A stretch of 46,345 nt of DNA, from the IMG/VR virus record IMGVR_UViG_3300031370_000003. One strand, given 5' to 3'. Within the stretch, counting starts at the first letter, position 1. Each line of letters opens with the position of its first letter. The stretch comes from a virus. Its lineage: Duplodnaviria > Heunggongvirae > Uroviricota > Caudoviricetes. This document shows, one piece after another, positions 1,802-41,056 of this stretch. Below the pieces are notes generated by a model that was not told the origin of the DNA, did no database searches, and saw only the letters and a list, made by a program, of their open reading frames with translations. Both the position numbers and the translations under genes were made by a program.

Positions 1802-1826
1802 GGCCACTATATGTAGTGGCCTTTTT
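1802..1826 (+). terminator. Hairpin plus T-run upstream of nrdA (terminator or attenuator)
   Basis: GGCCACTA-TATG-TAGTGGCC-TTTTT. Confidence 0.55.
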
Positions 1827-1839
1827 ATTGGGAAAACAC

Positions 1840-4164
1840 ATGATTAACATTCAGAAACGTGACGGGCGATCGGAGCCACTGAGCGAAGATAAGTATAACC
1901 GCGTGGTAATGTGGGCGGTCGAAGGCGTTGAAAACGTCAGTGCATCAGCCATTGCCCTCGGTGCTTCTGCCAGCATTTTTGACGGCATGACCACCAGCCA
2001 GTTGCATGATGCGCTGGTGAAAGCCGCAGCTGATTTGATCAGCCCGGAAACTCCGAACTACTCCCAGGTTGCAGCCCGTCTTAATCTGTTCAAAATGCGC
2101 AAAGATGCGTTTGGTCAGTACGAATACCCCGACCTGTACATGCACATCGTGAACCTCGTAAATCGTGGCATTTACGATGAAGATTTGTTGAAACGCTATC
2201 ATCCAAACGAAATCAACGAGCTGGGCAAATATCTCGATACCGCTCGCGATGATCTGTTTGGCTACGCGGCCACCGTGCAGCTGCAGGGCAAATATCTTGT
2301 CCAGAACCGCGTCACTGGAAAAATTCACGAAGCACCGCAACACATTTATATGCTGGTGGGCATGTGTCTGTTCCAGGATTGGCAGGACGGCACCAGTGGT
2401 AAAACTCGTCTGGAAATGGTCAAAGGCTTCTATGATGTCACCAGTACATTCAAGCTCTCATTGCCAACCCCAATCATGGCAGGCGTTCGCACACCGACGC
2501 GCCAGTTCTCAAGCTGCGTACTGATTGAATCTGGCGACAGTCTGAAGGCCATTAATGGTACAGCTGCCGCGATCGTCGATTACGTTTCTCAACGTGCCGG
2601 CATCGGCATTAGCTTTGGCCGCATCCGTGCGCTGGGAAGCGAAATCCGTGGTGGCGAAGCGACCCACACTGGCGTTATCCCGTTCCTGAAGCACTTCCAG
2701 ACAGCCGTGAAATCCTGTTCGCAGGGCGGTGTTCGTGGCGGCGCAGCTACTGCGTATTATCCGTTCTGGCATCTGGAAACTGAAAGCCTGCTGGTGCTGA
2801 AAAACAACCGCGGTGTGGATGAGAACCGTGTACGCCATCTTGACTACGGTGTGTTGCTGAACCGTCTGATGTACCGCCGTCTTATTCGTGAAGAGAACAT
2901 CACTCTGTTTAGTCCGAATGATGTGCCTGGTCTGTATGACGCTTATTTCGAAGATCAGGATCTGTTCGAAGAGCTTTACCTGAAATACGAGGCTGACCCG
3001 GCTATTCGCAAGAAGAGTGTTTCTGCCGTTGAGCTGTTCTCTTCCATGATGCAGGAGCGCGCCTCTACCGGTCGTATTTATATCGGCAACGCTGACCACA
3101 TGAACGAGCATAGCTCCTTCATCCAGAGCATTGCGCCAGTGCGTATGTCAAACCTGTGTGCTGAAATTACGCTGCCAACCAAACCGCTGGTGAAAACTGA
3201 CGATCCCAACGGCGAGATCGCTCTTTGCACACTGTCGGCGTTTAACCTCGGCGCCATCGATTCTCTGGGTGACCTGCAGGAAGTCGCATTCTTTGCAGTC
3301 GCGGCACTCGACTCACTGCTTGATTACCAAAACTACCCAATGGAAGCCGCAGAGCGTGGAGCAAAAGCGCGCCGCAGCCTGGGTATTGGTGTAACCAACT
3401 TTGCGTATTACCTGGCGAAGAATGGCTTTAAATACTCCGATCTCGAAGGCAACAAGCTTGTTCACGAAACGTTTGAAGCGATTCAGTATTACCTTCTGGA
3501 CGCCAGCTGTAAATTAGCTGAAGCGAAAGGCGCGTGTGAGTGGTTCGACGAAACCAAATACTCTCTCGGCCAGCTGCCAATTGACCATTATCGCAAGTCC
3601 CTGGATGGTCAGGAGATCAATGCGAAGCATCCGCTGCTACTCCCATGGGAACAGCTGCGCCACCGCATCAAAGTGCATGGTCTGCGTAACTCTACGCTTA
3701 CAGCTCAGATGCCGTGCGAAACGTCGAGCCAGATCACCAACTCTACGAACGGCATCGAGCCGCCGCGCGGCGCTGTGTCCATCAAATCCTCCAAAGAAGG
3801 CGCCATCAAAATGGTTGTGCCTGATTTTGAGAACCTGAAAGGGCAATACGAATACCTGTGGGATATGCCGAGCAACTACGGCTATCTGACCAAAGTGGCA
3901 ATCATTCAGAAGTTCTTCGACCAGTCTATTTCGACCAACACGAACTATGACCCTGAGCGCTTCCCTAATGGCAAAGTCCCAATGGAAACGCTGCTTGATG
4001 ATCTGCTCACCGCCTACCAGCTGGGCATTAAAACTCTCTATTACCACAACACGCGCGACGGTGCCGGCCAAACGGAAGACACCAGCGATGTGACCAGCGC
4101 GCTCCAGGCTAATCAAGAGCCAATTCTTGACGACGAGCCTGATTGCGACACCTGCACCATCTAA
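1840..4164 (+). CDS. nrdA: Class Ia ribonucleotide reductase alpha subunit
   Basis: ATP-cone start MINIQKRDG, LPTPIMAG, active-site NLCAE, TLYY tyrosine pair, C-terminal CDTC. Confidence 0.97.
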   Translation: MINIQKRDGRSEPLSEDKYNRVVMWAVEGVENVSASAIALGASASIFDGMTTSQLHDALVKAAADLISPETPNYSQVAARLNLFKMRKDAFGQYEYPDLYMHIVNLVNRGIYDEDLLKRYHPNEINELGKYLDTARDDLFGYAATVQLQGKYLVQNRVTGKIHEAPQHIYMLVGMCLFQDWQDGTSGKTRLEMVKGFYDVTSTFKLSLPTPIMAGVRTPTRQFSSCVLIESGDSLKAINGTAAAIVDYVSQRAGIGISFGRIRALGSEIRGGEATHTGVIPFLKHFQTAVKSCSQGGVRGGAATAYYPFWHLETESLLVLKNNRGVDENRVRHLDYGVLLNRLMYRRLIREENITLFSPNDVPGLYDAYFEDQDLFEELYLKYEADPAIRKKSVSAVELFSSMMQERASTGRIYIGNADHMNEHSSFIQSIAPVRMSNLCAEITLPTKPLVKTDDPNGEIALCTLSAFNLGAIDSLGDLQEVAFFAVAALDSLLDYQNYPMEAAERGAKARRSLGIGVTNFAYYLAKNGFKYSDLEGNKLVHETFEAIQYYLLDASCKLAEAKGACEWFDETKYSLGQLPIDHYRKSLDGQEINAKHPLLLPWEQLRHRIKVHGLRNSTLTAQMPCETSSQITNSTNGIEPPRGAVSIKSSKEGAIKMVVPDFENLKGQYEYLWDMPSNYGYLTKVAIIQKFFDQSISTNTNYDPERFPNGKVPMETLLDDLLTAYQLGIKTLYYHNTRDGAGQTEDTSDVTSALQANQEPILDDEPDCDTCTI

Positions 4165-4254
4165 GCGTGGGGCAGCCGCCCCACCGTCTCCAATCAATTG
4201 AACACCTGTGCCAGCGCATCACAATGCTGGCACGTAAAACAACGAGGAAAACAC

Positions 4255-5388
4255 ATGAGCCAATATTCAACGTTCCGGCTTGGGGCGAACGACGCGACAA
4301 AAGAACCTATGTTCCTTGGCCTGTCAGTAAACGTATCTCGCTATGACCAGCAAAAATATCGCCTGTTTGAGAAGCTGATCGAGAAGCAGCTCTCTTTCTT
4401 CTGGCGCCCTGAAGAAGTGGACATTTCTAAAGATCGCATTGAGTTCAACAACAAACTGCAACCGCATGAGCGACACATCTTCCTGAGCAACCTCCGTTAC
4501 CAAACTCTGCTGGACTCCGTACAGGGTCGCAGCCCGAACGCTACATTGCTGCCGCTGGCGTCCATTCCAGAGCTGGAGACGTGGATTGAAACGTGGTCAT
4601 TCTCAGAGACCATTCATAGCCGCAGCTACACGCACATCATTCGTGGCATGGTCGATAACCCGGCTGAAATTTTCGACGGCATTGTGAGCGATGAAGAAAT
4701 TGTGAGCCGCGCCGCATCGGTTACTGAGCAGTATGACGCCCTGTATCAGCTGATCTGCGCTCGCGAGTATCTATCAGAGCAGGAAGGCCGTTTTGATGAG
4801 ATTTATGGCGAACTTGCCATGGAGAAACAGGTTTACCGCACCCTGGTAGCAGTAAACGCTCTGGAGGCAATCCGCTTCTATGTCAGCTTCGCCTGCACGT
4901 TTTCTTTTGGTGAGCGTGGACTACTGGAAGGCAATACAAAAATTATGCGCTTCATCGCGCGTGATGAGGCTCTGCATTGTCACTCTACAGAAATGATGAT
5001 CAAGTACATGCGCGTCGGCAAAGAGGGTGAGCAGTGGAAGGCTGTGGCTGATGAGCTTGAGCCCTTTGTTTACCAGACCATGAAGGACGTGGCTGAGCAG
5101 GAGATGCGCTGGGCAGAACACCTTTTCAAAGATGGCTCTATGATCGGCCTCAATGCAGAAATCCTGAAGCAGTATGTGAAATATCGCACCAACGTTAGCC
5201 TGCGTCGCATGGGGCTTAAGCCAATTTTCGAAGATGCTTTGAATGATCCACTGCCGTGGATGAACAAATGGCTGCTGAGTGACCAAGTGCAAGTGGCGCC
5301 GCAAGAAGTTGAGGTTAGCTCATATCTGGTTGGGCAGATCGACTCAACGGTGAGTTCGAAGAGCCTGAAGAAGTTCGCCGACATTTGA
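4255..5388 (+). CDS. nrdB: Class Ia ribonucleotide reductase beta subunit
   Basis: FWRPEEVD, ETIHSRSY (iron ligands and radical Tyr), RDEALH, C-terminal SSYLVG. Confidence 0.97.
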   Translation: MSQYSTFRLGANDATKEPMFLGLSVNVSRYDQQKYRLFEKLIEKQLSFFWRPEEVDISKDRIEFNNKLQPHERHIFLSNLRYQTLLDSVQGRSPNATLLPLASIPELETWIETWSFSETIHSRSYTHIIRGMVDNPAEIFDGIVSDEEIVSRAASVTEQYDALYQLICAREYLSEQEGRFDEIYGELAMEKQVYRTLVAVNALEAIRFYVSFACTFSFGERGLLEGNTKIMRFIARDEALHCHSTEMMIKYMRVGKEGEQWKAVADELEPFVYQTMKDVAEQEMRWAEHLFKDGSMIGLNAEILKQYVKYRTNVSLRRMGLKPIFEDALNDPLPWMNKWLLSDQVQVAPQEVEVSSYLVGQIDSTVSSKSLKKFADI

Positions 5389-5470
5389 TGAATTTACGTG
5401 TTGGATGCCTACGTCCAACACGTTACTATGTTGAAAATAAAGTGATTGTTTATATAAATAAGGAAACAAG

Positions 5471-6328
5471 ATGTTTACTGGCATTATGGACAAAGTGAAG
5501 CTGTTCGGTGACAAAGTTGTCGGCTTCAAGCCAGATCTTTACGAGCTGCATCCGGGTTATGGCGATCATACTCTGGACATCTATGAGATGGTTAACCAAT
5601 TCCACGGGCTGTTTCAGCATCCTCAGCGTATAGCTGCAACACCGGCGCTGCTTCGCTTACGTGCAAAACTTATTCGCGAAGAAGCTGTTGAAGAAGGCAT
5701 CCCAGCTGCCGATAACTCAAATTTAGAGAAGATATTGGATGCGATGGCCGACTTCCTCTATGTCGGTATTGGCACTATGGTGGCGATCCGCGGCGGCGCA
5801 CCTATGGGGATGAGTATTTATACCCAGGATCAAAGCGTAGGTCGATTCCATGAGACTTTGTCTATGACTTCCGCAGCGATCGATGATGTGAAGCTACCGT
5901 TTTATGAAGCTGGCAAAGTCGCTGATGAGCTTGAGGCTCTTGCGACCAAAATTGAGTCAGAGAATTTGTCAGAAGGTGCTCTTATTAACGAGCTGCGCCG
6001 AGTCCTGAACATGCTTTATGTCGCCTGCAGCATGACCTATCGCCTGGCTGATTTAATGGACATCAACATTGTAGAGCTGGTGGCGGAAGTTCACCGTTCC
6101 AACATGACGAAGCTGTGGCCGGGTGACGATGCAGAGCGGGCTGTGGCGGTGGATCGCTGCCAGTACGACCATTCAGATCTGGGCTTCCGTGCTTGTGAAG
6201 GTACTGATTTAAGAATCGGATTCCGCATCTCAGATGGCAAAATCCTCAAGTCACCAACCTACAGTGAAGCTGATCTGGTTGGCTTTGTTGCGACGGCTAA
6301 GACGTCTACTATTGTGAAGGAATTATGA
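5471..6328 (+). CDS. MazG/PRA-PH-like all-alpha NTP pyrophosphohydrolase (possible dUTPase)
   Basis: LIREEAVEE...DAMADFLYV...EVHRSNMTK pattern; directly upstream of thyA. Confidence 0.75.
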   Translation: MFTGIMDKVKLFGDKVVGFKPDLYELHPGYGDHTLDIYEMVNQFHGLFQHPQRIAATPALLRLRAKLIREEAVEEGIPAADNSNLEKILDAMADFLYVGIGTMVAIRGGAPMGMSIYTQDQSVGRFHETLSMTSAAIDDVKLPFYEAGKVADELEALATKIESENLSEGALINELRRVLNMLYVACSMTYRLADLMDINIVELVAEVHRSNMTKLWPGDDAERAVAVDRCQYDHSDLGFRACEGTDLRIGFRISDGKILKSPTYSEADLVGFVATAKTSTIVKEL

Positions 6329-6410
6329 AGATGCGCCTTGTAGTTAAATGGCTATAAAGGTATATTTGATTCTTATGCGAAATAAACCTTATCAGAATAT
6401 CTGATTTATA

Positions 6411-6437
6411 GGCGCCCTTCTGGGCGTCTTTTTTTTT
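6411..6437 (+). terminator. Rho-independent terminator
   Basis: GGCGCCC-TTCT-GGGCGTC followed by T9. Confidence 0.75.
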
Positions 6438-6491
6438 GCTTTTAAGTTATAGGGTTGCTTTGATGGCGCTCTTTTTTTACTTATTATAAGA

Positions 6492-6509
6492 TAGGTATTC
6501 ACATACCTA
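6492..6509. promoter_or_regulatory. Motif-A palindromic operator upstream of thyA
   Basis: TAGGTA-TTCACA-TACCTA, extended to GATAGGTA...TACCTATC. Confidence 0.65.
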
Positions 6510-6523
6510 TCAAAGAAACCAAG

Positions 6524-7609
6524 ATGACAAGTTTACTCAACAAACCTTTCACTAATGGCCTGGCGACGGATTACACATACCGTTCAGTAATTAGCCGGGT
6601 TCAATCAGAAGGCATGGCCTCTGGCGACAGAACTGGAACCGGCACAAAAGGAACCTGTTTCTTAGCAACCGATTACCTGCTGACTGGTGCATCAGTGCCA
6701 CTTGTTTCCAGCAAAAAAACCAACCTCAAACCTCTTCTGGTTGAGCTGGAGTGGTATCTCAAAGGCACTGGCAATATCGGCTTCCTGAAAGAGCATGGCG
6801 TCAAAATCTGGGACGCATGGGCCGATGAGAACGATGACCTCGGGCCGGTCTACGGAAAGCAATGGCGCAGCCTGGAAGACACCCGGATTATACTTAGCAG
6901 CGATCTACAAAAATATCTTGAGCGCGGTTACTTGCTTGAAACTGAAATCGACGACAAACGTTCCCTTGTCACCAGAAACGTTGACCAGTTGGCGCGTATC
7001 GTTAACACGCTTCGCACTAACCCATCCGATCGCCGAATGCTGATGAGTGCATGGAACGTGGCTCAGCTGGAAGACATGGCACTGCCACCTTGCCACTTTG
7101 CGTTTTACGTGTGGAGTCGTGAGCTGGATTTCCCAACCCGTTTGTCGATGGCGAGTGATGTCGGCCGGACGCACTCTCAGTACGGGCATGAAAGCATGTA
7201 TAGCCGCCTGCTTGAGCTGCTGGATTCTGGCACTGAGATTAATGACGAGCTGATGGACAGCCTGGGTATTCCAAAGCGAGTTCTTTGCTCTACGGTAATG
7301 CAGCGCAGCGTTGATGTGTTTGTCGGTATGCCTTTCAACATTGCTGGGTACGGCATCCTGACTCACTTCATTGCCCAAATTACCGGCCACATGGCCGCGT
7401 CTCTGACTCATTACGGATGTGACGTCCATCTCTATGACAATCACCAAGAGGCGGTTGAAGAACTTCAGGCGCGCGAGATCCCCAAAAGCTCTGACCCGGT
7501 GGTCATCCTTCCCGAAGCATGGGAAGAGATTGACGATTTCCGCTGGGATGGCGTCGTGGTTGAAGGCTATGAACCACTGCCATGGATCAAGGTTCCGGTG
7601 GCGGTGTAG
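6524..7609 (+). CDS. thyA: Thymidylate synthase
   Basis: DRTGTGT, IWDAWAD, YGKQWR, catalytic LPPCH, QRSVD, PFNIAGY, DVHLYDNH. Confidence 0.95.
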   Translation: MTSLLNKPFTNGLATDYTYRSVISRVQSEGMASGDRTGTGTKGTCFLATDYLLTGASVPLVSSKKTNLKPLLVELEWYLKGTGNIGFLKEHGVKIWDAWADENDDLGPVYGKQWRSLEDTRIILSSDLQKYLERGYLLETEIDDKRSLVTRNVDQLARIVNTLRTNPSDRRMLMSAWNVAQLEDMALPPCHFAFYVWSRELDFPTRLSMASDVGRTHSQYGHESMYSRLLELLDSGTEINDELMDSLGIPKRVLCSTVMQRSVDVFVGMPFNIAGYGILTHFIAQITGHMAASLTHYGCDVHLYDNHQEAVEELQAREIPKSSDPVVILPEAWEEIDDFRWDGVVVEGYEPLPWIKVPVAV

Positions 7610-7611
7610 CA

Positions 7612-8028
7612 ATGGCCAGGGGAATGATTGTTTTTTGTGAGATCGACAATGTTTTGGCTGAGGTAAATCACCGCAGCTCATTGTCGGCCGAGGATGATCG
7701 TCTGGTAATGGGCGATGGTCTTATCTTCCCCACCAGCCGAATGCTCCGGGGCTTCATGCGCTCCGGGGCAGAAATTGCTTTGGTTTCAAATCGCTCAGCC
7801 AAATTGAGTGAGGCTACGAAGCAATGGCTAAAAGGGGCTGGCATTGATTACGACTGGCTTTACTTCGGCGGAATGACGCCCAAGTACGGAGCTTTTTTGA
7901 AAAAGACTTTGCAGGAGCATCGGGTCGATCGACTTATTGCAGCGGTAGGCGCCAGCCAAGAGTTTGTCAGCGTAATGGCAAGCCACCCAAACCGCCCTGT
8001 TTGTTATGTCGTCCGAAAGGGAGAGTGA
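7612..8028 (+). CDS. HAD-superfamily phosphatase-like protein (PNKP-type), degenerate motif I
   Basis: IVFCEIDNVLA in place of DxDGTL; VSNR motif II; TKQWL...IDYDWL. Confidence 0.6.
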   Translation: MARGMIVFCEIDNVLAEVNHRSSLSAEDDRLVMGDGLIFPTSRMLRGFMRSGAEIALVSNRSAKLSEATKQWLKGAGIDYDWLYFGGMTPKYGAFLKKTLQEHRVDRLIAAVGASQEFVSVMASHPNRPVCYVVRKGE

Positions 8029-8030
8029 CC

Positions 8031-8534
8031 ATGTTTATGATTGCTGCGGTGGCCAAGAACGGCGCCATCGGAAAAGGGAATCAGCTGCCATGGCGCAGCA
8101 AAGAAGATCTGCAAATTTTCAAGCGCATGACGACCGGTAAGATTGTAGTTATGGGGCGTAAAACAGCGGAAAGCCTGGGTAAGCCACTGCCTGACCGTGT
8201 GAACGTTGTTATCAGCCGTGATGCAGCTCGTGTACCGGCTGGATTCGCCCATCTCAGAGGTATGTCTGATGTGGCTAAGTTGTCGGTCTATTCAAACTGC
8301 GAGGTGGCCATCATTGGGGGCGCTGATATTTATCGTCTCGCTTTGCCATACGCTCATCGCGTTTACCTCACCCACCTTGATATTGAAGTGCCAGACGCAG
8401 ATACCTTCTTTCCAATGGAAGAAATGGCCGCCGCAAATCTGATTTCGCTTGAGACGTTAGTGGTTCAAGAGGAAACGGAAACAACTCCAGCCTTTAAACA
8501 AGTTGTTTATGGAGATAAAGAATGGATCGCATAG
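8031..8534 (+). CDS. folA: Dihydrofolate reductase
   Basis: IAAVAKNGAIG, LPW...D, VVMGRKTAESL, PLPDRVNVVISR, IIGGADIY, ADTFFP. Confidence 0.93.
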   Translation: MFMIAAVAKNGAIGKGNQLPWRSKEDLQIFKRMTTGKIVVMGRKTAESLGKPLPDRVNVVISRDAARVPAGFAHLRGMSDVAKLSVYSNCEVAIIGGADIYRLALPYAHRVYLTHLDIEVPDADTFFPMEEMAAANLISLETLVVQEETETTPAFKQVVYGDKEWIA

Positions 8535-9157
8535 GTTTTGCTGGCGCCCAGGGAACGGGCAAAACGACTTTAGCCAAGCGTCTCGCACTTAAGTACGGTT
8601 ACAGGTTTGTCGATGCTGGCGTCGGCGCGCTGATGAGTAAGCTAGGTGTTGTGGTTGGCAAAGAAATGCCTCTCTTCGAACGACTGCAGGTGCAGCTGGC
8701 CGTCGCGAACCACATTGCCGACAAATCCAGTGGCTCAGGCAGTTTCGTTATGGATCGAACGCCAATTGACGTTATGGCCTACACCATCGACCTCCTCCAC
8801 CAGGTTAATGATGATCGTTGTGTTTCGCTGTTCAATGAGATTCAACAGGTGTGCTCGCGAACCGCAATCGCGAACTACAACGTGATTGTTGGTTTGCGCC
8901 CGGGGATCGAGCTTTCTCAAGAGGACAAAGATCGAGAGCAGCGAGGCTCTCTCGACCCTTTGTATGTTCGCCGAATTGATGCGCTGGTGTGTGGCGAACT
9001 GAACAATCTCAACCTCTTTGAGAACAAGCGGAATCTTACAGTCGGCTTTTTCCCGCCAACTTTAACGGATCTGGATGCGCGGATTACTTCATTTAGCCAA
9101 TACATTCGAAATTCCGCAGCAGCACACAAGCGGCCAGTCGATAGCGCCTTGCACTAA
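8522..9157 (+). CDS. P-loop nucleotide kinase (dNMP kinase/AAA_28-like)
   Basis: Walker A GAQGTGKT; DRTPID motif; located in the nucleotide cluster. Confidence 0.75.
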   Translation: MDRIGFAGAQGTGKTTLAKRLALKYGYRFVDAGVGALMSKLGVVVGKEMPLFERLQVQLAVANHIADKSSGSGSFVMDRTPIDVMAYTIDLLHQVNDDRCVSLFNEIQQVCSRTAIANYNVIVGLRPGIELSQEDKDREQRGSLDPLYVRRIDALVCGELNNLNLFENKRNLTVGFFPPTLTDLDARITSFSQYIRNSAAAHKRPVDSALH

Positions 9158-12206: not shown

Positions 12207-12821
12207 ATGATTGCCGCAGAGAAGATTAAAAAGCGCGAGCGTGACAAAGAGCTGCGCGACCTGTGGCGCACTCCACGATGGCTATTTGAGGCCATTCAGA
12301 AATACCTGGGCATCCAGTTTAACGTTGACGTGGCTTGTGATGCCGGCAACGCGCTGCTGCCTGGCTTTATCGGCAGGGAAAGAGACGCGCTTGTTTGTGA
12401 GTGGGGCGAGCCAGGCACAAATGCTTTTCTCAATCCGCCTTATTCCAAGATTAAACCCTGGATAGAGGCTGCTATGCGTGAGCAGCGTCGCGGCGTATCG
12501 ACAGTAATGCTGATCCCCCAATCACTTGATACCGCCTGGTATGAGTTCGCTACTGAATCAGCTAATGAGACGGTGGTGCTGACCGGTGGGCGTGTAGCCT
12601 TTCTGGAACCAGACGTGGAGCTGGGGTTGGTAGAAGTACGTGAAAACCCAGGTGGTAGTATGCTGGTGGTCTTCCGCGGCCACTGCCACCAAGCTGGGCA
12701 CATTCTTCGCAAGGTTTCACTGCCAGTAATGAAAGAGCTGGGTGGTTATGATCCTTTAAAAGCAATCAGAAAGAAGCGCCCCTCCAAGAAGAAACAACCC
12801 ACGTTGGAGCTGGCAGCTTAG
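12207..12821 (+). CDS. dam: Phage-type DNA N6-adenine methyltransferase
   Basis: DLWRTP, VDVACD, catalytic NPPYS; phage Dam family layout. Confidence 0.88.
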   Translation: MIAAEKIKKRERDKELRDLWRTPRWLFEAIQKYLGIQFNVDVACDAGNALLPGFIGRERDALVCEWGEPGTNAFLNPPYSKIKPWIEAAMREQRRGVSTVMLIPQSLDTAWYEFATESANETVVLTGGRVAFLEPDVELGLVEVRENPGGSMLVVFRGHCHQAGHILRKVSLPVMKELGGYDPLKAIRKKRPSKKKQPTLELAA

Positions 12822-33628: not shown

Positions 33629-35203
33629 TCAGTTGCCCAGAACATTAAAATCAAACTTCCCATCGACCGGTAACACGCCTTCAGCGAAGCCGGGTGTAGT
33701 GTCAATGATGTTTTTGCGCTCGTAGGAATGAGACATCAGGTACTTATTGGAACTATCAATAAAGTCAGAGATAAAACAAACATTTGCCTGATTCTTTTTA
33801 GCACGTAGACCGCGCCCAACACGCTGACGCATCTCGACTTCTGCCTTACCACCACCAGCTAGGATCACCGCGCCCACACTTGGGACATCAACGCCTACAT
33901 CGAGTATGGTGGAGCCAATGAGAATGTCTATTTTGCCTGCAGCCAGGCTCTGCAATTTTGCTTGTCGTACTTTCTGGGATGATTCACCGTAAATGAAGTC
34001 AACCCGCAATCCCTCTGCCTGCATCATCTCCATTAAGATCTGACCATGCCTTTTGTGCTTTACCAACGTCATACAGTTTAACTTGTGTGACCTATACATT
34101 ACAGCGGCACGAACAATCGCTGCATTACGGTTTAGGTTATAAACGATGCCTAGTTGGTACGCCTTTTGGTATGGCGTGCTCATAACAACCCGGAAATTCA
34201 GGTGTTTTGATGCAAGTTCAGCCTTAATCCTAGCCTCATCTGGAGTGTACGCGATTTTATGATATAAGAAGTAGGGTTTTGCCAAAATACCTTTATCAAT
34301 CAAATATTTTTCCGTCACCTTTATCTCAATTCGGCCGGCAACAGCCATCAATCGCATGTTGGCTTCCGTGGAATCCTTCATAAACGGAGTAGCGGTCAAA
34401 GCCAGACGATAATCAGCGTTGTGACAGAGTCTGGCGATGTCGTAAAAGCTGGAGCCGGATGATTCGTGCGCTTCTTCCAAAATAAGGAGGGAAACGCTGG
34501 CAAGCAGCTGTTTAATAAGCTCTCTTCGCTTGAGGTGCTGGGCGCGTTTCTCGGGAGAGAGGTCAGAACCAGGCTCATTTATAAAACTGGAGAGTGTTTG
34601 AACGGTCGCAACGTTGATATGACGTGATACCTTCAGTTCGCCCGAGCCAATCACACCAACCTTCTGCCCCTTAAGCCACGGCTCGCCATTATCAGCGCGA
34701 TAGTCGATGGATTTTTGAAAGTTATCTGCCATTTGGAACATTAGGACAGATCGAGTCGTAATGAACAGCGTCATACGACCGATACGTGCAGCTGCCTTGC
34801 AGGCTATATTCGATTTTCCGCCACCGGTTGCGACCTGGGCAATCATCCCGCCCACTTTTACCATGGTTTCAACAGTCTGATCTTGATATGCGTAGTCTGG
34901 ATTGTAGGGGAATGGGTTAACCGCGGGATTTGGCTTGCCAAGAGCAGAAACCATCGGTTTCCGAATGTGAGTTGCAGGAATACCAGCCCGGTTTAGCTTT
35001 GCTGCGATAGATCGAGCAAATCCAGCCGGAAACGAGCATTTTGACCAGTTGAACATGGTGCTGCGACCATCCCATCCACCACTACCTGAAAATGAGGCGC
35101 CATCAACATCGTAGCTCAACATGTCCTGAACTATCTTTTTTACGTTGTCATCCGCCCCTGAAATTAACGCGTTCACTGCGTTTGATACAATTCTAACGCT
35201 CAT
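33629..35203 (-). CDS. Superfamily II helicase (UvsW/ResIII-like)
   Basis: ATGGGKS, LEEAH, TATP, GVDVP, QRVGRGLR. Confidence 0.9.
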   Translation of the reverse strand: MSVRIVSNAVNALISGADDNVKKIVQDMLSYDVDGASFSGSGGWDGRSTMFNWSKCSFPAGFARSIAAKLNRAGIPATHIRKPMVSALGKPNPAVNPFPYNPDYAYQDQTVETMVKVGGMIAQVATGGGKSNIACKAAARIGRMTLFITTRSVLMFQMADNFQKSIDYRADNGEPWLKGQKVGVIGSGELKVSRHINVATVQTLSSFINEPGSDLSPEKRAQHLKRRELIKQLLASVSLLILEEAHESSGSSFYDIARLCHNADYRLALTATPFMKDSTEANMRLMAVAGRIEIKVTEKYLIDKGILAKPYFLYHKIAYTPDEARIKAELASKHLNFRVVMSTPYQKAYQLGIVYNLNRNAAIVRAAVMYRSHKLNCMTLVKHKRHGQILMEMMQAEGLRVDFIYGESSQKVRQAKLQSLAAGKIDILIGSTILDVGVDVPSVGAVILAGGGKAEVEMRQRVGRGLRAKKNQANVCFISDFIDSSNKYLMSHSYERKNIIDTTPGFAEGVLPVDGKFDFNVLGN

Positions 35204-35249: not shown

Positions 35250-35267
35250 TAAGTAGTTGGTTACTTA
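35250..35267. promoter_or_regulatory. Motif-A operator between the divergent helicase and ParB operons
   Basis: TAAGTA-GTTGGT-TACTTA. Confidence 0.6.
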
Positions 35268-35966
35268 ATGGATTATATCAAAAACATGGACGTAAAAATT
35301 AACATCTTGCAGGTGGAAGTAGGGCGACTGCAGCCAAACCCGTGGAATACAAACGCCGTGGGTCTTCAGAATTTTGAAAAGCTGAAAGGCTCAATCGACC
35401 GCCTGGGTTTCTTTAAACCGATCCTGGCTCGCGAGCTGCCAGATGGCTCATTCCAGATCCTCGGTGGTGAACACCGCTGGCGCGCAGCCATTGAGCAGGG
35501 CATTACCACTGTGCCAGTTATCACCGTTGGTCAGATCAGCGACGTGGTGGCAAAGCAAATGTCTCTCGTTGATAACGAGCGCTACGGTGAAGACGATCAA
35601 CTCTCTTTGCAGCGTCTGATTGAAGAAATCCAGTCAGAAACTGGCTTCAGCCTTTCAGAAATAGCCCCATTTGATGACGAGATGGCAGCGACACTGGCCC
35701 GAACTGCGGCTTTCGATATGGCGGAACTGGAGCGACTGACTGATGGCGACGAGAAAGCGGCAGAAGAGGATAAACGCGAGAAGGTTGAGCGTTTGGGTGT
35801 GGAGCACCAAACGATGCGCTTCAAAGTCACCTTCGACTCTGCTGATTCAGTCACTACAGCCATTAAATCGATCATTGCCGAGCAGGGCATTAATACTGGC
35901 AGCGACATGGAAGACGCTGGAGAAGCCCTGGTGTGGCTCGCAGACTTTTACAAGGAACGTAACTGA
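35268..35966 (+). CDS. ParB/Srx-domain protein 1 (alternative start 35286)
   Basis: LQPNPWNTN, GFFKPIL, ILGGEHRWRAA, DNERYG. Confidence 0.88.
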   Translation: MDYIKNMDVKINILQVEVGRLQPNPWNTNAVGLQNFEKLKGSIDRLGFFKPILARELPDGSFQILGGEHRWRAAIEQGITTVPVITVGQISDVVAKQMSLVDNERYGEDDQLSLQRLIEEIQSETGFSLSEIAPFDDEMAATLARTAAFDMAELERLTDGDEKAAEEDKREKVERLGVEHQTMRFKVTFDSADSVTTAIKSIIAEQGINTGSDMEDAGEALVWLADFYKERN

Positions 35967-36643
35967 TGAGCACCCCATTTGAGATCGTGTATCTCGACCC
36001 TAAAACTCTGGTTCCATATGAGGCCAATGCCAAAAAACACGACGAAACCCAGATTCGTGATTTGGCTGCGGCAATTTCCAAGCGTGGATTTGACCAGCCA
36101 ATCACCGTTGATAAAGACATGGTGATCATCACCGGCCACGGCCGCCGAGAAGCTGCAATTTATGCAGGGCTTGACCTGGTGCCGGTAATTATCCGAGCCG
36201 ATCTCGACGAGGTCTCTGTTCGTGCGAAGCGTCTGGAAGACAACCGTCTGGCCAGTACCGATTACGATGCCATCAAGCTGCAAAAAGAGCTTGAAGAGCT
36301 GGTGCTGGGCGACGAGGTGGTGATTGGCTTCGACGAGCGTGAGCTGAGCGTTTTGGTTGGTAGCATGACGGAAGACATGGCCACCGACTCTCTGGTGATG
36401 GACTTGGGTCATGAATCCGTGCGCCAGCATGAAGAGCATGAAGAGATCTCCCGGGAAGTGGCGGAGTCAGAATTGCGAGTGATCGACGTGTTGGGCTTTA
36501 AAACGCTTCCCGCTGGCTCTGCGCTGGTTGTTGGGGATTTACTTGCCCACATGGAAGAAGTGACGGGAGAGAGCGGGGCAGAAGCATTTGTGGCTTATGC
36601 GAAGCGTGTTTCTGAAGAAGCTGTCGATGAGGAAGGGGCATGA
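35966..36643 (+). CDS. ParB/Srx-domain protein 2
   Basis: LVPYEANAKKH, GFDQPITVD, ITGHGRREAA, LEDNR. Confidence 0.88.
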   Translation: MSTPFEIVYLDPKTLVPYEANAKKHDETQIRDLAAAISKRGFDQPITVDKDMVIITGHGRREAAIYAGLDLVPVIIRADLDEVSVRAKRLEDNRLASTDYDAIKLQKELEELVLGDEVVIGFDERELSVLVGSMTEDMATDSLVMDLGHESVRQHEEHEEISREVAESELRVIDVLGFKTLPAGSALVVGDLLAHMEEVTGESGAEAFVAYAKRVSEEAVDEEGA

Positions 36644-37281
36644 GCAACTACCTCATCAATGTAGCTTTCCAAACGCGTGTCACAAAGACCACCCGAACGC
36701 TGGAGATCGCTGAATCGTTTGGCCTGGGTCTGGATGAAAAAGAATGGTCTCTTTACGACAACCTGGAGCTGGAAATCCGCTCTGGTGATGTCGTGTACAT
36801 CACCGGTCAATCAGGATCTGGTAAATCGGTGGTGTTGCGCGAGCTTCAGCGTTTGATGAAAGAAGAAGGTCAGGATGTGGCCTCAATCGAAGACTTTGCC
36901 TTTGACGACAGCAAGAACGTCATTGACCAGCTGGGTAAAACCACCAGCGAGGCATTGGGGCTGTTATCTATGGCTGGGCTTAACGATGCCTATTTGTTTG
37001 TTCGCAAACCTTCTGAGATGTCAGACGGCCAGCGTTACCGCCTGAAAATCGCAAAGCTAATCGAAACCGGCGCAAAGGTATGGGTTGCTGATGAGTTTGG
37101 CGCTGTTCTGGATCGAGTAACTGCCCAGGTGGTTGCATCCAATCTCCAGCGCGCAGCGCGCAAAGCCGGGGCAACTGTCATGGTGGCAACCACGCATGAA
37201 GACCTCAAAAATGCTCTGCGCCCGGATGTGCAGATCACCAAGCACTACAAAGAACGTGTGAAGGTGGATTATGCAGCTTAA
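36640..37281 (+). CDS. Soluble ABC-type ATPase
   Basis: GQSGSGKS, MSDGQ signature, VWVADE, TTHED; no permease nearby. Confidence 0.88.
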   Translation: MSNYLINVAFQTRVTKTTRTLEIAESFGLGLDEKEWSLYDNLELEIRSGDVVYITGQSGSGKSVVLRELQRLMKEEGQDVASIEDFAFDDSKNVIDQLGKTTSEALGLLSMAGLNDAYLFVRKPSEMSDGQRYRLKIAKLIETGAKVWVADEFGAVLDRVTAQVVASNLQRAARKAGATVMVATTHEDLKNALRPDVQITKHYKERVKVDYAA

Positions 37282-37819
37282 AAAGGTTTTCCCGATTTAT
37301 GAAGGGGCTGAGCTGCGCCGCCGCTGGACACACGAGGCTGAATGGCAAGATTGGCTTCGTGCCCATGGCGCCTATGGCTTCCGTGTCGCCCCATATTACA
37401 ACCGCTGCGTCGTGGTTTTTGGTGAGAAACGCTATGTGGAGGTGATCAAACAGCTCTATGGGCTGGATGAGAGTGAATATGTAGCGGGGGTTGGTGGCAT
37501 GGTCACTGACCTGGGCTATATCCAGTACGACACCAATGTTCACTGCGTATATCTGCCTGAAAACTACAATGAGTCGGTTTACTGGCACGAAGCCTTGCAC
37601 ATCGCGCTTATCACTGGTCAACACCATGATTTGATGCCTTCAGATCAGGAGGCTTTCACTTATCTTCAGGGCTACATCGTTGAAGAGTTCGTAAAGGCTC
37701 GCGTTAAGTTCCTGGCCGACAAGAAGGCGGGTGGTTTGCCGGCGATCGAGGATATTGTGACGCGTCACCCCTCAACCATTCGTCGCGGTGGTTATGGCAG
37801 TCGGAAGGTGGTGCGATGA
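37271..37819 (+). CDS. HExxH (zincin-like) protein
   Basis: WHEALH...DQEAF; overlaps both neighbours. Confidence 0.65.
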   Translation: MQLKKVFPIYEGAELRRRWTHEAEWQDWLRAHGAYGFRVAPYYNRCVVVFGEKRYVEVIKQLYGLDESEYVAGVGGMVTDLGYIQYDTNVHCVYLPENYNESVYWHEALHIALITGQHHDLMPSDQEAFTYLQGYIVEEFVKARVKFLADKKAGGLPAIEDIVTRHPSTIRRGGYGSRKVVR

Positions 37820-38706
37820 ACGACGTAACCATCAAACGCTACAAGCCTGAAGAGTTTCCGAAGCATTTGGATTTTCTGGAGCGTATGACTGTGACGCGCG
37901 GCACTGTGGATGATTGGAATGCTTTGAAGTCGCTGCATTATAAAACTGACGGCAAACCATTCGCACCAACCTATTACCGCTGCGAGCTTGATGGTCGGCT
38001 GGTGGGCGTTGTTGTTGTGGCTTTTCCAAAACTGCTTCTGGCGCCGCGTCACCGCATGTTCCCCAAACTGAAGCCCACCACTAACACGACGGTGGCCAAT
38101 CAGTTCTGGGGGCGTTACGTGAACAACAATTTCGCTGTGATCAGCCGTTCAGTGGTGGACACCCAATACCGTGGCGTGGGTGTTTCATATCGCATGATTA
38201 ACCTGGTGAGCCGAATGCACAACAGGCCGATCATCGAAATCCAGTCCTCGATGAGCAAATACAACCCGTTTGCGATGAAGGCAGGCTATCAGTTTATTCG
38301 ACCAGAGCGTCCGAAGAGTTACGAAAGTGCGCTGCGCGTATTCCATCGGCATTTCCGTGCCGACCCGGGCGACAATGAGAGCATTGTGAAAGAGCTGTTC
38401 TCTATGAGCGAGAATCGCCGCCGCCGCGCGCTGGTGGATCTCGTTGCCGACTACCACAAGAACTCATCGTTGGCGAAAGCTGGGCGCAACCGAGGCACAA
38501 CCGTTCAAGACATCGCCGATTCTCTGGTGGATGAAGCCAGTATCGTGAAATTGCTGAAGGACATTCACAACCTTAGCTTTACTTCGCCGCTCTATGGTGT
38601 TTACCGCAACCCGGATTTTGGCAGGGATTTGCCTGACGTGTTGCCACTACTGGCATTCGACAACCAACCATTAAATGCGCCGCTGGATCTGGCGCGTATC
38701 TCGTAA
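37816..38706 (+). CDS. GNAT-fold acyltransferase (possibly Mom-like)
   Basis: ISRSVVDTQYRGVG motif A; NPFAMKAGY motif B. Confidence 0.8.
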   Translation: MNDVTIKRYKPEEFPKHLDFLERMTVTRGTVDDWNALKSLHYKTDGKPFAPTYYRCELDGRLVGVVVVAFPKLLLAPRHRMFPKLKPTTNTTVANQFWGRYVNNNFAVISRSVVDTQYRGVGVSYRMINLVSRMHNRPIIEIQSSMSKYNPFAMKAGYQFIRPERPKSYESALRVFHRHFRADPGDNESIVKELFSMSENRRRRALVDLVADYHKNSSLAKAGRNRGTTVQDIADSLVDEASIVKLLKDIHNLSFTSPLYGVYRNPDFGRDLPDVLPLLAFDNQPLNAPLDLARIS

Positions 38707-38718
38707 GGAAGCGAGCAA

Positions 38719-38985
38719 ATGATTTTGACAGATAAGCAGAAAGATATTCTGCGCACCATTTACCTTGGCCACGATCGCGGCCATTTACTTGACCTCGATG
38801 AGCTGCTGGAGGTTCTTCCATACAAAACCACAAAGCAGAGTATGCAGTTCTCTCTTCGAGCGCTGATTAAAAAGGGACTTGTCGAGAAAGGTGAGTTTCG
38901 TGCGCGTGGAGATGATGGCTACCAGCGACGCACACTCGGTCTGACCGTTATGGGTAGAGCAAGCGTAAAGCTGATGGTGGCATGA
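38719..38985 (+). CDS. Winged-helix DNA-binding protein
   Basis: LTDKQKDIL...SMQFSLRALIKKGLVEK...LTVMG. Confidence 0.75.
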   Translation: MILTDKQKDILRTIYLGHDRGHLLDLDELLEVLPYKTTKQSMQFSLRALIKKGLVEKGEFRARGDDGYQRRTLGLTVMGRASVKLMVA

Positions 38986-38990
38986 GAAAG

Positions 38991-39043
38991 ACCTGCTTCC
39001 CATAAATAATTAATGGCTGGTTATTTAAATATACAGAAGCAGG
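38991..39043. repeat. 55-bp inverted-repeat element, copy 2
   Basis: ACCTGCTTC-N36-GAAGCAGG upstream of the terminase small subunit. Confidence 0.7.
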
Positions 39044-39158
39044 CTTTTAACCACTCCCCAATTAAGTTGTTTTCTAACTGTTGAAACCAATTTGTTTAGC
39101 AACTCCAGAAATGATTTTACTCGGCGCAAGGAAGCGCCGTGGTGGTTTAGAGGGAACT

Positions 39159-39797
39159 ATGACGACCGAAGCTGAAGAGGTAAAGGTCAAGGTCACGCCA
39201 GCTATGTGGGCGGAGATCGAGGCGAAATGGGCGTCCGGCGAGTACACGCTTTCAAGATTGGAAGACGAGTATGGGCTGCGCCGCGAGACCTTCTCTCGTT
39301 ATTTCAAAAAGAAGGGTTTGGCCAAAGGAGCCGACTCAGTTGGCAAGATGGTGCGTGAATCCCTGAAGTCAGACGCAGAGATCCGCGCTAAAGAGCGCGC
39401 CGACAAAATTGATGATCGTCGTAACAAGTATGACAGCTGGGCATTCACTCTTGGCAGAATGGCGATGGGTCAGGTTGCCGAGGCAAAGTCCAAAGGCACA
39501 TCGCTTGCTGTAATCGAGGGCGATCTAAAGTCAATTCAGCGCGCCAGCAATATTCTGGCTAAGTGCTTTGATGTGTCATCCAAAGCCCTGGGCATGGATA
39601 AAGACGAAGGTTTGGCCGACGAAATCCCGAACCTGGTGTTCGGCGAATTGACACCAAATCAGGTGGCAGAGCTGCGTAAATCAGAAGAACCAGATCTGAT
39701 TGACGATGATGAGCTTGAGGCACTTGAAGAGGAAGCAGCAAAAGACGCTGAGAGCGTTTTGGAGAGTGAAGCTGACGATGATAGTGGGGAAGCATAA
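39159..39797 (+). CDS. Terminase small subunit (probable)
   Basis: N-terminal HTH, helical oligomerisation region, acidic tail; directly before terL. Confidence 0.75.
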   Translation: MTTEAEEVKVKVTPAMWAEIEAKWASGEYTLSRLEDEYGLRRETFSRYFKKKGLAKGADSVGKMVRESLKSDAEIRAKERADKIDDRRNKYDSWAFTLGRMAMGQVAEAKSKGTSLAVIEGDLKSIQRASNILAKCFDVSSKALGMDKDEGLADEIPNLVFGELTPNQVAELRKSEEPDLIDDDELEALEEEAAKDAESVLESEADDDSGEA

Positions 39798-39799
39798 CC

Positions 39800-41056
39800 A
39801 TGGCCATCCCGTCATCGCTGAGCTTGATTCAGCTGCATTCTGGGCAGATGTCAGTGTTCCAATCACCCCATCGTTTCAAAGTGGTGTGTGCTGGCCGACG
39901 CTGGGGTAAGTCTCGACTGTCAATTTCTAAAATTATTCGTGCGGCCGCTTCTGGCCGCAAACAGCGTGTTTGGTACGTAGCGCCAACGTATCAGATGGCC
40001 AGGCAGATTTTGTGGGATGACCTTCAGGAGACAATCCCGCGCAAATGGGTGGCTAAAAAGAACGACACCACAATGACGATCGTTCTCAAGAACGGTTCGG
40101 AAATTGCACTAAAAGGTGCGGATAAGCCAGATACATTGCGTGGTGTTGCGTTGAACTTTGTCGTGCTTGACGAGTTCCAGGATATGAAGCCTGACACCTG
40201 GTACAAGGTATTGCGTCCAACGCTGTCTTCTACCCGCGGTGGTGCGCTAATTATCGGCACACCGAAAGGCTTCTCTGAGTTCCATAAACTTTGGACGATC
40301 GGGCAAAACGAAGATTTGCAGAAGAAGGGACAGTGGAAGAGCTGGCAGTTTGTGACAGCCGATTCACCCTTTGTTCCAGAGGCGGAGATCGAAGCCGCGC
40401 GGAATGATATGGACCCTAAATCATTCGCTCAGGAATACCTTGCGTCGTTTGAGAACATGTCAGGTCGCGTGTATTACCCGTTCGACCGCAAAACGCATGT
40501 TAAGGATGTGGCCTTTAATCCGAAGCTGCCTATCTGGGTTGGTCAGGACTTTAACATCGATCCAATGTCCTCGGTCATCCTGCAGCCGCAGCCGAATGGT
40601 GAAGTTTGGGCGGTGGATGAGCTGGTGCTGTATTCTTCAAACACCGCAGAGGTATGTGATGAGCTGGAACGCCGGTACTGGCGATCGAAGTCTCAGGTAA
40701 CAATCTTCCCAGACCCTGCAGGCGCATACCGACAACATGCGCGCGGTGAATCGGATGTGGACATCTTTAAGGAGAAGGGTTTTCTGCGCATCGATCACCC
40801 GAAGAAGCACCCGCCGATCGCTGACCGTGTGAATGCAGTAAACCGTATGCTGATGACCGCGTCTGGAGATGTGAGACTTTATATCAGCCCGAAGTGTAAG
40901 GGACTGATTGAATCGCTGGAAAAGGTGATCTACAAACCGGGTTCGCGTGATATGGACAAGTCAGGTGGTGTAGAGCATAGCGCTGACGCCCTCGGCTATC
41001 CAATTCATAGAAGATTTCCGGTTAAAAGTCGTGTTATTCTTGGTGGCTCACGATAG
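39800..41056 (+). CDS. terL: Terminase large subunit
   Basis: AGRRWGKS, VVLDE, IGTPKG, nuclease GQDFN and HSADA. Confidence 0.95.
   Translation: MAIPSSLSLIQLHSGQMSVFQSPHRFKVVCAGRRWGKSRLSISKIIRAAASGRKQRVWYVAPTYQMARQILWDDLQETIPRKWVAKKNDTTMTIVLKNGSEIALKGADKPDTLRGVALNFVVLDEFQDMKPDTWYKVLRPTLSSTRGGALIIGTPKGFSEFHKLWTIGQNEDLQKKGQWKSWQFVTADSPFVPEAEIEAARNDMDPKSFAQEYLASFENMSGRVYYPFDRKTHVKDVAFNPKLPIWVGQDFNIDPMSSVILQPQPNGEVWAVDELVLYSSNTAEVCDELERRYWRSKSQVTIFPDPAGAYRQHARGESDVDIFKEKGFLRIDHPKKHPPIADRVNAVNRMLMTASGDVRLYISPKCKGLIESLEKVIYKPGSRDMDKSGGVEHSADALGYPIHRRFPVKSRVILGGSR

Follow-up and report, generated by a model that had tools for sequence, protein, structure and literature searches.

The DNA analysed here is a 46,345-nucleotide stretch of a virus of the Caudoviricetes (IMG/VR record IMGVR_UViG_3300031370_000003; one strand, 5' to 3'), referred to in its full length as the window; judged from sequence, it is an SSU5/pHCM2-type phage-plasmid. 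Immediately upstream of its terminase genes lies a block of six genes, g1 to g6, which encode two ParB-fold proteins, an ABC ATPase, a small HExxH protein, a GNAT-fold protein and a small basic protein (Table 1). All six are present on the + strand between 35268 and 38985 in the open reading frame (ORF) list of the window, where a preliminary description had placed them, and the tight junctions it reported can be read directly from the sequence: g1 and g2 overlap by one nucleotide in a TGATG, g2/g3 and g4/g5 meet in an ATGA, g3 and g4 overlap by 11 nucleotides, and g5 is followed by a 12-nucleotide spacer with a GGAAG ribosome-binding site before g6. The palindrome named motif A heads the block, as described, and the genes next downstream encode a TerS-like DNA-binding protein and TerL, with the portal gene 3' of both, which confirms the reported link to the terminase genes. 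The domain calls of the preliminary description (two ParB, ABC ATPase, HExxH, GNAT, winged helix-turn-helix) hold as well; the GNAT call needed fold prediction, and the winged helix-turn-helix (wHTH) call is weak. The core of the module is formed by g3 and g5, which are the two halves of one enzyme, a split ABC-GNAT.

By its motifs, g3 is a complete, minimal, soluble ABC ATPase. It matches ABC_tran at E 1e-13 and contains a Walker A motif (GQSGSGKS), a signature of the LSDGQ type (SDGQ), Walker B (DEF), a D-loop (LD) and an H-loop (TTH), all of them invariant across the split and the fused relatives. No permease gene occurs next to the module in any neighbourhood examined.

The g5 protein has no significant match in Pfam or NCBIfam (the GNAT models of Pfam score at E ~0.2), and comparison with the PDB by sequence, as a single sequence or as a profile, gives nothing meaningful. 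Its AlphaFold2 model, computed from 30 homologues with a predicted local distance difference test (pLDDT) score of 85.8, aligns over residues 19-266 with dozens of GNATs at VIA-align Z values of 11-12; on this model, g5 is the GNAT-fold acyltransferase half of the enzyme. The GNAT core spans approximately residues 19-165 and 257-266, and a helical insert of about 90 residues (~166-255) precedes the last strands. The acyl-CoA loop, YRGVGVS, is conserved, with R119 and G122 invariant, and the protein is basic (isoelectric point, pI, 9.8). The top Foldseek matches are the RNA acetyltransferases NAT10 and TmcA (E ~1e-4), with Mom of phage Mu at rank 16; by VIA-align, Mom (8bv8_A) takes rank 8 with Z 11.2 and gives the longest alignment (165 residues). 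Both PHROG (phrog_886) and GenBank (SSU5_129) label g5 'ABC transporter ATP-binding subunit', a label that is wrong, the fold being that of a GNAT and not of an ATPase; it has probably spread from fused ABC-GNAT proteins.

Such fused proteins are common. The exhaustive search with the g5 profile finds 919 representative proteins (E <=0.001), many of them 440-500 residues long with the GNAT at residues ~200-480; their N-terminal 200 residues are ABC_tran by Pfam and belong to the same ABC family as g3. The name given by JGI to homologues of g5, 'ABC-type ATPase with predicted acetyltransferase domain' (COG2401-type), describes the same pair of domains, and in the relative L048, in which the slot between the two genes is empty, g3 overlaps the start of g5. 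The fused gene is present in at least 396 confirmed viral contig loci. A word-index search of longer proteins for fused relatives close to g5 returned one match, which was rejected as a probable artefact.

The contexts of the fused gene, surveyed in the best 80 of the at least 396 viral loci, point to DNA machines. A TerL gene of the Terminase_6N family lies directly upstream on the same strand in 43 of them, often a few bases apart, and in L004 the TerL gene overlaps the ABC-GNAT gene. In P0207, which is indexed in 35 blocks of the collection, and in P0170, the ABC-GNAT forms the C-terminus of a family-B DNA polymerase (PolB), and the gene lies in a phage replication module. The downstream neighbours are heterogeneous: ASCH, the commonest family, accounts for just 3 of 41, so that a fixed third partner cannot be recognised. 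ASCH domains are either N4-acetylcytidine amidohydrolases (YqfB) or binders of RNA or modified bases, and they are found near the module also in Streptococcus prophage 315.4 and in locus L090.

Individual loci show further variants of the enzyme. In L007 (8001-11783) PolB, ABC and GNAT form a single protein of 1260 residues, as also in L167 and L168, and L170 has a corresponding ORF of 1300 residues. In L090 (4294-7813) split ABC and GNAT genes follow those for primase and DnaB, and the slot between them holds an FkbM-type methyltransferase and a protein of 270 residues, contents that suggest a multi-step modification pathway; two ParB-sized proteins encoded upstream of the ABC gene in this locus have neither ParB motifs nor a Pfam match. 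In L089 (7001-9544, P0161) an intein carrying a LAGLIDADG homing endonuclease lies within the fused ABC-GNAT; the same contig additionally encodes an amidoligase.

In the window, the split enzyme is preceded by a pair of ParB-fold proteins. g1 (Pfam ParB_N, E 5e-14; phrog_723, E 1e-70) has an N-terminal ParB/Srx domain with the motifs GGEHRWRAA and DNERYG, and residues G66, G67, H69, R70, A74, D102, N103 and R105 are invariant in its relatives; g2 (ParB_N, E 1e-6; phrog_930, E 1e-95) has the motifs GHGRREAA and EDNR, again with invariant key residues. Both proteins keep the ParB-CTPase motifs GxxRxxA and (D/E)N invariant, and they are paralogous to each other, at an hhalign probability of 98.3%. 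The C-terminal half of each is very acidic (pI 4.2), and Pfam detects ParB_N alone in the two proteins, with no helix-turn-helix (HTH); TIGR00180 scores under the cut-off. The neighbours of the pair are the helicase and the ABC ATPase, with no ParA gene adjacent. The preliminary description had stated that the window contains neither ParA nor an ABC permease; none is found among the ORFs scanned, which are part of those in the window, and to that extent the statement stands. In the nearest complete record (G001), which was used for whole-genome checks and whose g5 is 100% identical (locus L013), the sole ParA-like gene lies ~33 kb from the ParB pair.

The association with ParB recurs across phyla, in cultured phages of distant hosts. 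Genes 1-4 of Gordonia phage BiggityBass encode ParB, an ABC-like protein, a methyltransferase and the terminase; in Leptospira phage LE4 a ParB-like protein is followed by the fused ABC-GNAT and then by TerL; and in Streptococcus prophage 315.4 (L172, 4486-6490) a ParB with an E value of 2e-33 against the g2 profile precedes a member of the same ABC family, an ASCH gene and TerL. Complex prediction, a check that the preliminary description had proposed, lends weak support to an association of g2 with g3+g5, that is, to a ParB-GNAT contact: the score is 0.39, against 0.00 for the best of three controls, and it drops to 0.00 when g5 is replaced; the runs share at least 61% of contacts, with a partner pLDDT of at least 67. 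Of 80 solved complexes, 58 attain the mark applied, as do 2 of 110 mismatched pairs; the passing scores at or below 0.60 include just 7 of the 80 solved complexes, yet both passing mismatches.

Table 1. Features of the module and its surroundings in the window.
Feature	Position	Strand	Description
SF2 helicase gene	33629-35203	-	ResIII, DEAD, Helicase_C; divergent from g1
Motif A	35250-35267	+	Palindrome TAAGTAGTTGGTTACTTA; abuts the ATG of g1, in the divergent helicase/ParB intergenic region
g1	35268-35966	+	ParB-fold protein 1, 232 aa
g2	35966-36643	+	ParB-fold protein 2, 225 aa
g3	36640-37281	+	Minimal soluble ABC ATPase (by motifs), 213 aa
g4	37271-37819	+	Small HExxH protein, 182 aa
g5	37816-38706	+	GNAT-fold protein (by model), 296 aa
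g6	38719-38985	+	Basic protein of 88 aa, probably a winged helix-turn-helix
TerS-like DNA-binding protein gene	39081-39797	+	phrog_867, aligned from residue 27
TerL gene	39800-41056	+	Terminase_6N, E 1e-8; phrog_2, E 1e-60

The slot between g3 and g5 exists in three states in the close set, which consists of 80 close viral relatives and was complemented by two distant prophages (one of Ectothiorhodospira, the other in a 3.3-Mb contig of alphaproteobacterial type). It either measures ~30 nucleotides, with g3 overlapping the start of g5, or has 256 nucleotides and an unrelated gene of 84 codons, as in SSU5, or has ~540-553 nucleotides and contains g4. In most relatives it is empty or otherwise filled; the distant prophages have other small genes in it (Phage_gp49_66, RyR), and by tblastn only three records in the phage collection, all of Klebsiella phages, contain g4. 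The variable contents of the slot identify g4 as optional cargo and not as a core part of the module, so that the HExxH gene, listed in the operon by the preliminary description, drops out of the system. g4 itself is a small HExxH protein with a predicted zincin-like fold: WHEALH and QEAxTYLQG are invariant in its relatives, and its model (pLDDT 89) matches small metallopeptidase, SprT-like and IrrE-like predicted proteins among the AFDB clusters at TM ~0.5, with no fold match in the PDB at E <=0.001 and no Pfam match. At the other end of the block, g6 (pI 9.75; phrog_900, E 3e-40) is a small basic protein and probably a wHTH, as suggested by matches to LexA_DNA_bind (E 0.008) and MarR_2 (E 0.011), both under the cut-off; a gene for 87-92 residues occupies its position in the distant relatives L002 and L003.

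Gene order is constant in the close relatives and the two prophages: helicase, g1, g2, g3, slot, g5, g6, terS, terL, portal. The divergent helicase gene is a conserved part of it, being the same in L002, L003 and those close relatives that reach that far, and both the Ectothiorhodospira and the alphaproteobacterial prophage have the full SSU5-type set. The six-gene block has ~75% DNA identity to the SSU5 genes SSU5_125-130. Relatives of the module are present in 238 of 5,426 complete E. coli genomes, plasmid-borne every time (241 of 241 matches), and the split form is carried also by several ~110-kb phages of Pseudomonas, Rhizobium, Stenotrophomonas and Xanthomonas. For the more distant part of the close set, the 74 loci L014-L087, identity to the window is 86-90% for g3 and 79-91% for g5, comparable to the 87-92% of TerL and far above the 60-80% of g1, g2, g6 and terS. 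This TerL-like conservation points to strong constraint on g3 and g5.

Motif A belongs to a family of sites spread over the window: the palindrome TARGTA-N6-TACYTA, with at most one mismatch, has 11 matches, against 0.12 expected by chance, at positions that include 1774, 6492, 12177, 14460, 27174, 35250, 41054, 42580, 44506 and 44965. The copy before g1 extends right up to the start codon, so that it may influence the initiation of translation in addition to transcription. The spacer between g6 and terS (38986-39160) contains an inverted repeat (CCTGCTTC ... GAAGCAGG) that flanks an AT-rich loop, and is a candidate pac/cos or operator region; the GenBank record of SSU5 is linearised ~60 nucleotides past its g6 homologue. 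Translation of terS probably begins at the ATG near 39159, given that the match to phrog_867 starts only at residue 27 of the annotated frame. In a simple scan for promoters and terminators, sites were no commoner than in shuffled sequence. The RNA evidence consists of one metatranscriptome and three doubtful libraries, with short low-depth contigs over parts of g4-g6 and the helicase gene, which demonstrate neither transcription nor its timing; the public runs that contain this DNA are almost all DNA libraries. Elsewhere in the window, positions 1816-9157 and 12207-12821 form a nucleotide-metabolism block, with ORFs of 782 and 396 residues at 1816-5388 (an earlier note names the first nrdA), a MazG-like pyrophosphohydrolase, an unusually long thymidylate-synthase homologue of 361 residues, then dihydrofolate reductase and a P-loop kinase-like protein, and, further along, a Dam methyltransferase.

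For the split enzyme, the function we favour, and to which we give about an even chance, is ATP-dependent acyl transfer to a DNA nucleobase late in infection; from here on we infer the substrate, the chemistry and its timing, as well as the parts played by the ParB and wHTH proteins. Around replication or packaging, the enzyme would place an acyl mark on a base of the phage DNA, and the mark would shield progeny DNA against nucleases of the host. On closing, driven by ATP, the ABC dimer would grip or distort the DNA, whereupon the basic GNAT with its helical insert could reach the base and carry out the chemistry. g1 and g2, acidic ParB paralogues in which Pfam finds no HTH, would recruit or license the enzyme in the role of nucleotide-switch adaptors or activators, and g6 may be a small DNA-binding factor for specificity or regulation. 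The logic proposed for g3+g5 parallels the ATPase-plus-GNAT architecture of TmcA and NAT10, and the activator role of g1/g2 is modelled by analogy on ParB-dependent phage thymine dioxygenases. Acylation of a nucleic acid fits the occurrence of ABC-GNAT as a single polypeptide in many viruses, its position behind TerL or fused to PolB, and the basic character of both the GNAT and the wHTH protein. DNA as the acceptor is suggested by the PolB fusions, the terminase adjacency, the ParB partners, the methyltransferases and ASCH proteins nearby, and the precedents of TmcA/NAT10 and the ParB-dependent dioxygenases; the strong constraint on g3 and g5 also counts in its favour, as do the intact acyl-CoA loop of the GNAT and the rank of two nucleic-acid acetyltransferases, NAT10 and TmcA, at the head of its Foldseek matches. 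The DNA-modification reading of the preliminary description is plausible but indirect, with the DNA substrate as its inferential part.

Several observations weigh against DNA acylation. Adjacency of genes to the terminase does not show functional coupling, and adjacency is what the 'packaging-coupled' of the preliminary description amounts to. Anti-restriction genes are not usually as conserved as TerL, and such conservation would be explained equally well by a structural or packaging role. By sequence, the GNAT does not belong to the Mom family: the Mom model is unmatched by g5 at E up to 10, and PF25680 has no match in G001 (E up to 1). In fold comparison the Z values of Mom, TmcA and NAT10 are tied with those of protein and small-molecule GNATs, Mom lying within 1 Z unit of dozens. 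The link to ParB is found in just 1 of the 80 fused loci, a metagenomic set, and Streptococcus prophage 315.4 has ParB and ABC with no GNAT detected, from which the ATPase may have a role independent of acyl transfer. No modified base for SSU5-type phages was found in the literature.

Some of these points recur in the alternative that the targets of the ABC-GNAT and its ParB helpers are the packaging machinery or DNA ends, and not bases to be marked, for example either by acetylating TerS, TerL, portal or capsid, or by organising concatemeric DNA for the terminase in the manner of ParB/SMC. We consider this unlikely. In its favour, TerL lies directly upstream of the fused gene in 43 of 80 loci, the module precedes terS/terL in SSU5-type, Gordonia, Leptospira and Streptococcus phages, conservation is on a par with TerL, the ParB+ABC pair of prophage 315.4 has no detected GNAT, and protein N-acetyltransferases are numerous among the GNATs that tie for the top in structure. 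However, the PolB fusions and the placement after primase and DnaB (L007, L090) put the enzyme in replication modules too, and the ABC of g3 is without coiled coils or SMC-like arms. A further proposal, in which ABC-GNAT is no dispensable anti-restriction device but carries out an essential packaging-linked step, the ATP-dependent acylation of DNA or of the packaging machinery being required or sensed by terminase or portal, is a long shot; the mark could then be, for example, N4-acyl-cytosine, with the nearby ASCH proteins as its readers or erasers.

The acceptor could also be an RNA or a protein of the host, with the enzyme acting as a TmcA-like acyltransferase of tRNA or rRNA, or as an acetyltransferase that disables a host enzyme or defence. 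NAT10 and TmcA as top Foldseek matches speak for this, as do the known phage GNATs that acetylate host RNA polymerase (Rac; reviewed in PMC7824862) and the recurrence of ASCH domains near the module (3 of 41 downstream neighbours, 315.4, L090); but the genes sit in a late or packaging operon and not among early host-takeover genes, the enzyme adjoins the terminase or is fused to a DNA polymerase, and it evolves slowly, unlike typical counter-defence genes, so that we rank an RNA or host-protein acceptor as improbable, just behind an action on packaging. Plasmid partition, with the ParB pair as centromere binders and g3 as the motor, would suit two ParB_N proteins on an element that persists as a plasmid (241 of 241 E. 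coli matches). It is largely refuted by distribution, the same set occurring in integrated prophages and lytic-type phages, and is very improbable also in view of g1 and g2, with their acidic C-terminal halves and no HTH detected by Pfam, the distance of ~33 kb to the ParA-like gene of G001, and a partner ATPase that is of the ABC type, not the ParA type. The annotation of the genes as transporter components derives from the names given by PHROG and GenBank ('ABC transporter', 'ABC transporter ATP-binding subunit'); it is refuted for g5, which is a GNAT and not an ATPase, and has next to no probability overall, as no neighbourhood seen includes a permease gene and the ATPase is elsewhere fused to a GNAT or a DNA polymerase.

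If DNA acylation is correct, SSU5/pHCM2-type phage-plasmids, a common kind of element in Escherichia, Klebsiella and Salmonella, would have an undescribed ATP-dependent acyl modification of their DNA, and hundreds of other phages would carry an acyl mark too. Possible consequences include changes in sensitivity to restriction and CRISPR, in sequencing signals and in the host range of phages used in therapy. If the packaging-linked step were real, it would amount to a new class of DNA modification together with a new checkpoint of phage assembly in clinically common SSU5-type phage-plasmids. As the module is compact (five genes, expressible in E. coli), this long-standing computational prediction is directly testable.

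Among known systems, Mom of phage Mu (adenine N6 modification; PDB 8bv8, PF25680) resembles g5 in its GNAT fold, its status as a phage late gene and its anti-restriction logic, but g5 has no sequence match to the Mom model and Mom requires neither an ATPase nor a ParB partner. TmcA and NAT10, which acetylate N4 of cytidine in RNA, likewise couple a P-loop ATPase to a GNAT that acylates a nucleobase; their ATPase is however of the helicase type, as opposed to ABC here, and they act on RNA with tRNA-binding domains that g5 does not have. For the ParB pair, a conceptual parallel exists in chromosome biology: ParB recruits SMC, an ABC-type ATPase, onto DNA. Here too a ParB-fold nucleotide switch is combined with an ABC-class ATPase, although g3 has no coiled-coil arms or kleisin partner, Pfam finds no HTH in g1 and g2, and no parS site was found, no search aimed at one having been made. 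A further parallel is the phage thymine dioxygenase 5mYOX, for which activation by a ParB-like protein has been shown experimentally (PMC13229309): there, as is proposed here, an HTH-less ParB-fold protein stands beside a phage base-modifying enzyme, often near terminase genes, the differences being that the enzyme is an Fe/2OG dioxygenase and that a single ParB occurs with no ABC ATPase. Fusions of the ParB fold to acetyltransferases and methyltransferases, of unknown function, are also documented (PMC12704722).

The closest system in domain make-up is the ABC-coupled GNAT for which acylation of a nucleobase in DNA was predicted in 2013 (Iyer, Zhang, Burroughs and Aravind, NAR; as cited in PMC7824862), a prediction that Iyer et al. 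(2021) restate in PMC7824862, where they name Tenacibaculum phage pT24 as a carrier; the ABC protein of pT24 matches the ABC family profile built here at E 3e-37. In the literature, no experiment on an ABC-coupled GNAT module or on DNA acylation by it was found, in agreement with the preliminary description, which knew of no experimental characterisation. The idea of DNA acylation is not new: to the extent that the 2013 work is represented in the later paper, the interpretation given in the preliminary description is in essence that published prediction, and with the function already in print, the window adds detail rather than discovery. The system of the window has the same two domains as the COG2401-type proteins, profile homology to the fused forms, intact ABC motifs, a GNAT fold with its acyl-CoA loop, and neighbouring ABC and GNAT genes whose homologues are fused elsewhere. 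It differs in that the enzyme is encoded by two genes, separated by a slot of variable cargo, and in having two ParB paralogues and a probable wHTH protein as companions. What is added here to the published prediction is this split form with its three-state slot, the ParB pair and probable wHTH protein that go with it, the conservation of g3 and g5 at the level of TerL, and the g2-type ParB shared across phyla with Streptococcus prophages.

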